The translations under genes and the position numbers were made by a program. Of a DNA stretch of 64,000 bases, positions 13,647-14,033 are shown one piece after another. The DNA comes from an uncultured Bacilli bacterium (GTDB taxonomy: Bacteria; Bacillota_I; Bacilli_A; RF39; UBA660): contig CALVZC010000004.1 in assembly GCA_944372425.1 (NCBI GenBank), positions 6,522-70,521 on the forward strand, in the 5' to 3' direction. How positions within the stretch are numbered: position 1 is the first letter of the stretch; the number at the start of each line of letters is the position of its first letter. The notes beneath the pieces are model-generated. The model was not told the origin of the DNA. It was given only the letters and a program-made list of their open reading frames with translations, and made no database searches.

Positions 13647-14033
13647 ATGAGTAAAATTTATGAAAAATATTTAGCATTAAAAAATAAGGATAAAAATAAA
13701 TTATATTTGTTTCGGAATGGCAACTTTTATATATTTTTGAAAGATGATTGTGATTATATAAATGAATATGTTGTTTTGAAAAAGACTTTATTTTCAAAAG
13801 ATGTTTATAAATGTGGTTTTCCTGCTTGTTCTTTAGAACAATATATGCATGTTTTTAATAATCATAATTTGAATATTGAAATTATTGAAAATTATGAAGA
13901 TATTAATTGTAATAGTTATAAAAATGATGACATTATTAATATGATTAAAAATATTAATTTAAATGATTTAACACCAATCCAAGCTATGAATTTTTTATTT
14001 GAATTAAAGGAGAAAATAAATGAAAGAAGTTGA
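13647..14033 (+). CDS. MutS domain I-like DGR accessory protein (MSL-type)
   Basis: 128 aa with a strong AAGGAG RBS. IYEKYLALKNKDKNKLYLFRNGNFYIFLKDDCDYINEYVVLKKT...CGFPACSLEQYMHVFNNHNLNIEIIE aligns by eye with the MutS mismatch-binding domain (E. coli [48 protein letters not shown]...[27 protein letters not shown]). The C-terminal NDLTPIQAMNFLFELKEKI resembles the MutS C-terminal DSLTPRQALEWIYRLK. Confidence 0.7.
   Translation: MSKIYEKYLALKNKDKNKLYLFRNGNFYIFLKDDCDYINEYVVLKKTLFSKDVYKCGFPACSLEQYMHVFNNHNLNIEIIENYEDINCNSYKNDDIINMIKNINLNDLTPIQAMNFLFELKEKINERS

Follow-up and report, generated by a model that had tools for sequence, protein, structure and literature searches.

A MutS-like accessory protein of a diversity-generating retroelement from gut Bacilli unites the mismatch-binding domain and the C-terminal helix-loop-helix of MutS

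MutS-like proteins among the accessories of diversity-generating retroelements

In the biology of diversity-generating retroelements (DGRs), the main step still open is how the cDNA becomes fixed in the target, and in at least one Bacteroides DGR the host MutS reverts most events (bioRxiv 10.1101/2024.11.15.621889). Proteins of the MutS-like (MSL) class are the one kind of accessory whose ancestry points directly at this step. In the survey of Wu et al., MSL genes occurred in 16 of 372 DGRs, always with avd (accessory variability determinant) and never with HRDC, and encoded proteins of 112-283 amino acids (aa) with an isoelectric point (pI) of 7.2 +/- 1.7; three DGR reverse transcriptases (RTs) in the same survey carried C-terminal MutS_I extensions (Wu et al. 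2018, PMC5758913). Reviews list the class, Msl has been noted in three Bacteroides DGRs (bioRxiv 10.1101/2024.11.15.621889), and a statistical association between PF01624 and DGRs was reported in 2023. Here we analyze an MSL gene, msl, and the DGR that contains it, in a 64,000-nucleotide (nt) stretch of contig CALVZC010000004.1 (assembly GCA_944372425.1), which we call the window and to which all coordinates without a locus label refer.

13647..14033, + strand: msl, a 128-aa MutS-like DGR accessory protein (open reading frame, Pfam, NCBIfam, phmmer, AlphaFold2, Foldseek)

The first-pass annotation of the window, made from the sequence alone, had named an MSL class in connection with this gene, and the protein is almost certainly a member of it. 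It combines a length of 128 aa with MutS homology, its gene lies in a DGR cassette beside the RT with avd directly downstream, and its pI of 6.1 (family median, 7.6) is near neutral, like those of the MSLs described by Wu et al., from which it differs in nothing essential beyond its origin in an uncultured gut Bacilli lineage. No HRDC was seen among the called open reading frames (ORFs), a check not extended to a wider HRDC search, and the target gene, msl, avd and the RT gene account for the cassette between 11087 and 15389. Three features described below appear to go without mention in the MSL literature we read: homology to the C terminus of MutS, a family-wide exchange of the recognition glutamate for an aliphatic residue, and fusions of MSL to Avd.

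A MutS reduced to its two ends

The recognizable parts of MSL are an N-terminal domain, the motif at its mismatch-contacting edge, and a short tail.

13653..13910, + strand: MutS domain I (mismatch-binding domain fold), residues ~3-88 (Pfam, secondary structure of the model, Foldseek)
13725..13733, + strand: F27-Y28-I29, at the position of the E. coli MutS mismatch-recognition residues F36-Y37-E38 (alignments)
13932..14024, + strand: C-terminal helix-loop-helix, residues ~96-126, homologous to the MutS C-terminal dimerization/tetramerization domain, E. coli 823-853 (phmmer, profiles, model)

The N-terminal assignment is firm. Pfam MutS_I (PF01624) matches residues 6-89 with an E value of 3.1e-9 and 37.5 bits, above the curated cut-off of 20.6, over profile positions 5-92 of 113; the NCBIfam model mutS1 (TIGR01070) matches with E 1.6e-8 in two separate stretches; and a phmmer comparison with MutS sequences of the PDB, which reproduces the alignment first made by eye, pairs MSL residues 5-85 with E. 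coli MutS 14-98. An AlphaFold2 model built with 41 homologues as input (mean pLDDT confidence score, 88.9) places in this region a helix (3-14), two strands (19-24 and 27-31), a second helix (32-38), two further strands (46-50 and 53-59), a third helix (60-72) and a last strand (77-80). When this model was compared with the PDB by Foldseek, each of the best 40+ matches was to domain I, either of MutS or of a eukaryotic MutS homologue (MutSbeta), with superpositions at a root-mean-square deviation of 1.5-1.9 Å over ~83 columns and a best E of 7e-6, so that the two checks suggested with the original assignment, by profile and by structure, both bear it out.

The protein had been described as consisting of domain I alone, with a C-terminal end that resembled the end of MutS. 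The domain I part of that description holds and the word "alone" does not, as the resemblance at the C terminus is itself homology. In the phmmer alignment, MSL residues 96-122 pair with E. coli MutS 825-851, and the model forms two helices there, 90-101 and 110-126. Ten isolated tails of 33-47 aa, with the N-terminal domain removed, were searched against 18,950 NCBIfam models; nine matched TIGR01070 and nothing else, always at mutS1 positions 807-840 of 840, with E values of 0.0015-0.05. A profile of 57 tails, run against 177,635 PDB sequences, ranked 2OK2 and chain C of 3ZLJ, the entries that hold the isolated MutS C-terminal domain, first and second in an end-to-end register (E ~0.2). From these comparisons the resemblance of the tail to the MutS C terminus is, on our reading, more than chance. 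The E. coli helix-loop-helix (823-853) dimerizes, and tetramerizes via D835, P839 and R840 (PMC1636413, PMC3783165). T109-P110 of MSL align with E. coli T838-P839 and are at least 90% conserved in close homologues, and the position of D835 is occupied by N, D or E in the family alignment. MSL thus possesses the MutS helix-loop-helix at the level of homology, and its oligomerization is predicted. Some MSL homologues (P0011, P0012, P0054 and others) are annotated with PF27441.1, which may be a new family covering the MSL tail.

Only the regions around positions ~5-92 and 807-840 of the mutS profiles are matched, and the connector, core, clamp and ATPase domains are absent from the 128-aa protein, as noted at first reading. 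MSL is therefore a "mini-MutS": domain I, a linker of ~10 residues and the C-terminal helix-loop-helix, i.e., MutS minus domains II-V. With bacterial MutS (MutS1; E. coli PDB 1E3M, 3ZLJ, 2OK2) it shares the domain I fold, the wedge Phe and a helix-loop-helix with T-P at the tetramer-interface positions; unlike MutS, it is without the ATP switch, the sliding clamp and the interfaces for MutL, and it has Ile where MutS has Glu38. The parts of MutS that MutL touches are the ATPase, core and connector domains (PMC4521584), and because these are missing MSL cannot recruit MutL. Inspection of the linker by eye revealed no beta-clamp motif.

A mismatch-recognition motif without its glutamate

The observation that the Phe of the Phe-x-Glu motif is kept in MSL while the Glu has become Ile is confirmed by the alignments, in which F27-Y28-I29 fall on E. 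coli F36-Y37-E38; the protein thus departs from the Phe-x-Glu signature of mismatch-repair MutS. In 41 close homologues the F, the Y, the I and the F that follows are invariant. An exhaustive profile search gave 1,387 matches at E<=1e-3, from which the best 150 cluster representatives, nearly all of them 77-240 aa long, were aligned. Among the 147 that cover the motif, 146 keep the wedge Phe, and the position of the Glu is filled by Ile in 105, Leu in 22, Val in 12 and other residues in 8 (S, Y, N and C were seen), with no acidic residue among the eight commonest. This alignment indicates that loss of the Glu is a fixed trait of the family, not an accident of the window copy, and that the wedge Phe is under selection.

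Glu-less variants of E. coli MutS offer a comparison. E38A, E38Q and E38T have each been crystallized on a G.T mismatch (PDB 1WBB, 1WBD and 1WB9, known to us by title), which argues that the Glu is dispensable for sitting on a mismatch; as far as entry titles can carry the point, this shows that the Phe wedge alone can hold one. MSL shares with these mutants the lack of the Glu carboxylate, and differs from them in that they are full-length engineered proteins, whereas MSL is a natural protein of two domains.

A complete DGR that has been active

The cassette around msl contains every component of a DGR.

11087..13093, + strand: DGR target gene, 668 aa, C terminus formed by the variable region (Pfam N_methyl, 6.9e-6; NCBIfam IV_pilin_GFxxxE)
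12949..13090, + strand: variable region (VR), a 142-nt direct repeat with the template repeat, 89% identity
13301..13442, + strand: template repeat (TR), 33 adenines, direct repeat with the VR
14020..14376, + strand: avd, 118 aa, pI 9.6 (bAvd PF22296, 1.4e-17; NCBIfam DivGenRetAVD, 4.5e-19)
14361..15389, + strand: DGR reverse transcriptase, 342 aa (RVT_1, 1.2e-15; IGNYTSQ and YMDD read from the translation)

The I/LGxxxSQ motif is a hallmark of DGR-type RTs, and the RVT_1 enzyme of the window carries it as IGNYTSQ. All 16 of the 16 differences between VR and TR fall on TR adenines. Because these adenine-specific differences are accompanied by Avd, the RT and a target gene, the window holds a complete DGR in the order target-VR, TR, msl, avd, RT. 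The msl gene opens with ATG, 4 nt downstream of the ribosome-binding site AAGGAG (13637-13642), and it ends within avd (start, 14020), its stop codon (14031-14033) reaching 14 nt into that gene; the avd and RT frames overlap in turn by 16 nt, the RT starting at 14361. The 128-aa frame, the ribosome-binding site and the overlap with avd are all as first described.

A closely related strain gives the cassette a history. Locus L001, a circular metagenome-assembled genome (MAG) of 1.31 Mb, encodes an MSL 95% identical to that of the window, and its TR equals the window TR except at two non-adenine sites, at both of which each strain's VR carries the base of its own TR. Of the 28 sites at which the VRs of the two strains differ, 24 are TR adenines. 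Since each VR follows its own TR and the changes concentrate at adenines, we conclude from these comparisons that the DGR of the window has been active. VR positions 34 and 74 (window 12982 and 13022) are a separate matter: there the two strains differ at non-adenine TR sites at which their TRs are identical, and these may be ordinary point mutations or rare non-adenine RT errors. RecD2 beside the DGR was found only in the near-identical L001, and we treated this adjacency as coincidence.

The target protein begins with a prepilin-type cleavage/methylation motif (type IV pilin/pseudopilin), and its homologues lie upstream of MSL in many related loci; Pfam names no C-terminal domain in the 668 residues. 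This suggests that the DGR varies a pilus-associated surface protein of gut Bacilli. Two hairpins with T-runs flank the TR region.

13194..13225, + strand: hairpin, 12-bp stem and T-run, 3' of the target gene; resembles a terminator, but may instead be a DGR target-site hairpin
13603..13628, + strand: hairpin, 10-bp stem and T-run, just 5' of the MSL ribosome-binding site

MSL genes travel with avd and the reverse transcriptase

One scan of 185,579 species-representative genomes yielded 75 MSL loci, all from MAGs of uncultured gut Bacilli, "Tenericutes" or Erysipelotrichaceae. The survey of co-occurrence proposed in the first-pass annotation thus has a clear outcome: in 67 of the 75 the MSL gene stands beside a DGR RT, belonging to one of two lineages, and homologues are not found mostly away from DGRs. 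The order MSL-Avd-RT recurs in 65 of 75, and in 44 of 63 the end of the MSL gene overlaps avd or runs right up to it (-23 to 0 nt), which suggests translational coupling. Loci L003 and L059 hold the other RT lineage (26-27% identity) in a different order (VR, a 179-185-aa avd-like ORF, TR, RT, MSL) and show the same adenine-specific VR/TR pattern. Contigs often end a few hundred bases upstream of msl, in or near the VR/TR repeat (e.g., L004, L010, L023, L025, L030), where assemblies seem to break.

Eight loci have no RT within reach. L041 ends with its contig, and the contig of L034 runs out ~500 nt past MSL, a stretch that holds no avd; L069 and L075 are truncated or fragmentary; L053 bears an unrelated C-terminal extension beside target remnants; and L012, L027 and L042 are orphans, whose MSL genes are intact and lie more than 6 kb from any RT. 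Four intact MSL genes have neither Avd nor RT nor a TR/VR repeat in their vicinity: L012:5968-6360, L027:5419-5781, L042:1673-2026 and L034:3336-3695. Several of these four, like the complete DGRs L003 and L047, sit just upstream of a conserved ORF of ~74 aa followed by rpsB and tsf. From their surroundings, they resemble remnants of DGRs at one common chromosomal site, or MSL genes acting in trans.

That msl might itself be nothing more than a decaying piece of mutS, with no function of its own, is an idea that its shortness, its internal deletion relative to MutS, the lost recognition Glu and the few truncated or orphan copies (L069, L075, L053) could bring to mind. We find it scarcely credible, as the conservation data contradict it. 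Representatives of hundreds of clusters agree in size and in their invariant motifs, 72 of the 75 loci retain an intact ORF, dN is lower than dS, the overlap with avd suggests translational coupling, and the gene is associated with two RT lineages. For the rates of nonsynonymous (dN) and synonymous (dS) change, only the closest pair is informative, window msl against L001 msl (dN 0.019, dS 0.105); distant pairs are saturated (dS ~1; median dN/dS, 0.45).

Fusions tie domain I to Avd

Four proteins are direct fusions of domain I with a complete Avd: P0238 (237 aa), P0213 (205 aa), and P0247 and P0248 (207 aa each; 46% identity to P0238). F-[YF]-I is present in all of them, the C-terminal helix-loop-helix in none. 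Nine contigs of independent samples (NCBI, ENA, Logan) carry P0238, whose gene is overlapped at its 3' end by the RT gene and preceded at its 5' end by a target with an adenine-specific VR/TR pair. In L076, a locus of the fused type, 16 of 16 VR/TR differences are at TR adenines, and two samples of the fused DGR share an identical TR while their VRs differ at 13 sites, from which we judge that DGRs of the fused type are active. The MAG GCA_947626595.1 (CANQST contigs 45 and 12) contains two DGRs, L072 and L076, one with separate msl and avd genes and the other with the fused msl-avd. P0107 (124 aa) runs straight from MSL domain I into the C-terminal half of Avd, probably as the result of a deletion in an msl-avd pair.

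The three DGR RTs with C-terminal MutS_I extensions (PMC5758913) resemble these proteins in attaching the module to the DGR machinery; there it is fused to the RT, in the window it is free-standing, and in relatives it is fused to Avd. Together, the MSL-Avd fusions and the RT-MutS_I extensions make it evident, as far as gene architecture can speak for protein contacts, that domain I works in physical association with the Avd-RT complex. The absence of the tail from the Avd fusions further argues that a covalent tether to Avd can stand in for the tail and that the job of the tail would be assembly, not an attack on host MutS.

Such an attack would be the role of MSL if it were a dominant-negative poison whose tail pairs with the C-terminal domain of host MutS and switches mismatch repair (MMR) off cell-wide. 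The homology of the tail to the MutS oligomerization domain, with T-P at the T838-P839 tetramer-interface positions, is what such a poison would need. We nevertheless regard it as very improbable: fusions without a tail persist in active DGRs, so the tail does not carry the essential activity; E. coli MutS that lacks the C-terminal domain or carries D835R is impaired only 5- to 10-fold (PMC1636413); and a mutator effect on the whole genome would burden the host.

A shield for the cDNA:VR heteroduplex?

We tentatively posit that MSL, as a partner of the Avd-RT complex, attaches to the cDNA:VR heteroduplex and prevents its reversion by host MutS and MutL. MSL would be a physical partner of the complex, and its retained Phe wedge would bind the mismatch-dense heteroduplex that forms when mutagenized cDNA pairs with the VR. 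Because MSL has no ATPase, no MutL-contact surface and no Glu in its Phe-x-Glu motif, and lacks the clamp as well, binding would not start repair; with the mismatches occupied, MutS and MutL would neither revert nor reject the heteroduplex, and more diversified VRs would result. The helix-loop-helix would serve for multimerization or tethering, a function taken over in the MSL-Avd fusions by the covalent link to Avd. That MSL binds DNA or mismatches, touches Avd and antagonizes MMR is what we infer from sequence and its context. A bolder form of the proposal, possible and more speculative still, is that MSL is an anti-mismatch-repair decoy built from MutS itself: a mini-MutS seated on Avd-RT that would lay several wedge domains on the cDNA:VR heteroduplex and hide it locally, without becoming a general mutator. 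The substrate, earlier pictured as an A:N mismatched heteroduplex, needs a correction: A:N mispairs belong to the TR-RNA:cDNA hybrid, whereas the cDNA:VR DNA heteroduplex pairs the current VR base with the newly incorporated one.

The first-pass annotation had offered shielding, directed resolution of the heteroduplex and antagonism of host MMR as possible roles. A link between MSL and MMR has been raised before (Wu et al. 2018, PMC5758913; a 2026 preprint), and the 2026 preprint takes MutS-like homologues in DGRs as a reason to suppress MMR in an engineered system. In a Bacteroides DGR without Msl, retrohoming increases 5- to 10-fold, in all-or-nothing fashion, when host mutS is deleted (bioRxiv 10.1101/2024.11.15.621889), so selective pressure for shielding exists. 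Were MSL to block MMR locally, it could improve engineered DGR and retron mutagenesis systems, which rely on mutS deletion or dominant-negative MutL (2026 preprint). The wedge Phe with its fixed aliphatic neighbor position, the MutS tail and the Avd fusions that replace this tail make the function behind the label "MutS-like" directly testable.

Several points weigh against shielding. Most of the DNA affinity of MutS comes from the clamp domains, absent in MSL, and an isolated domain I of near-neutral pI (6.1) may bind DNA weakly. The fusions attest a functional link to Avd, not what the domain binds, and the three intact orphan genes (L012, L027, L042) are without an RT within 6 kb. The hosts are uncultured Bacilli with small genomes (1.31 Mb in the related MAG, OZ006981.1), and the idea fails if they have no MMR; a tblastn search of the 64-kb window with an E. 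coli MutS query found no mutS, and in the loci only the MSL genes matched. BPP-1 retrohoming does not need MutS, and most DGRs work without MSL (Wu et al. 2018, PMC5758913). The first-pass annotation knew of no functional work on MSL, and our reading of the literature likewise turned up no experiment on MSL itself.

Hosts devoid of MMR would be no obstacle if MSL were instead an MMR-independent helper of the heteroduplex or of annealing in the Avd-RT complex, one that stabilizes cDNA:VR pairing or marks it for fixation by replication. The structural and fusion evidence fits such a helper as it fits the shield, and a DGR reconstituted in E. coli points to cDNA integration tied to replication and exonucleases (PMC12875486). 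Yet DGRs without MSL integrate cDNA well, and a neutral 15-kDa domain stripped of the clamp domains would be an unlikely annealing factor; we consider this role unlikely.

A structured RNA beside the template repeat

Directly 3' of the TR, and upstream of msl, lies a sequence that covers the full length of the Rfam RT-14 model.

13465..13597, + strand: structured RNA resembling Rfam RT-14 (RF02921), directly 3' of the TR (39.5 bits, gathering score 48.1; E 0.003; match over the whole model)
L064:139-275, L037:800-932, L050:2429-2566, L033:305-411, L038:3471-3606, L006:3760-3893: RT-14-like RNA in relatives (Rfam RF02921)

In these six related loci the RT-14-like RNA adjoins the TR, and in L064 it scores 48.5 bits, above the gathering score of 48.1. 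No RT-14 was found at the gathering threshold in 13 large loci; in smaller loci it was seen with a permissive E value only. In L006 and L038 the RNA lies downstream of the RT, beside TR-like sequence, and MSL is still next to avd. The RNA thus travels with the TR, not with msl, and is probably the DGR RNA spacer region of the window lineage.

This arrangement bears on a further possibility, that MSL binds RNA or an RNA:cDNA hybrid, either the RT-14-like RNA adjacent to the TR or the A:N mispairs, and aids priming, processivity or extension past mispairs. A structured RNA that sits between TR and msl and recurs in related loci, ties through the MSL-Avd and RT-MutS_I fusions to Avd and RT, which bind DGR RNA, and the family-wide loss of the Glu that contacts the mismatched base would all be in keeping with it. 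We think it improbable, however, as in L006 and L038 MSL stays by avd though TR and RNA are found 3' of the RT, no RNA binding is known for MutS domain I, and the Phe wedge is conserved as in mismatch-binding MutS subunits. Shielding of the cDNA:VR heteroduplex by the wedge domain is the role that we continue to prefer, with the reserve stated above.

Domain I beyond DGRs

A phage origin of the window MSL subfamily was considered and set aside: tblastn found no relatives in 50,697 phage records, and a scan of viral contigs likewise gave none, so the subfamily appears chromosomal. Small proteins consisting of domain I alone do occur in metagenomic phages and a giant virus in BFVD, namely, A0A8S5PPT8 (153 aa), A0A8S5L9N2 (84 aa), A0A8S5PL02 (74 aa) and A0A1V0SJ64 (135 aa). 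A much larger protein, P0229 (2323 aa), combines five MutS_I domains with three DUF285 (Mycoplasma) repeats and an ArdC N-terminal domain; one of its MutS_I repeats keeps F-Y-E and another reads F-Y-H. Here MutS domain I seems to have been put to use again as a module, in a protein that may belong to a mobile element.

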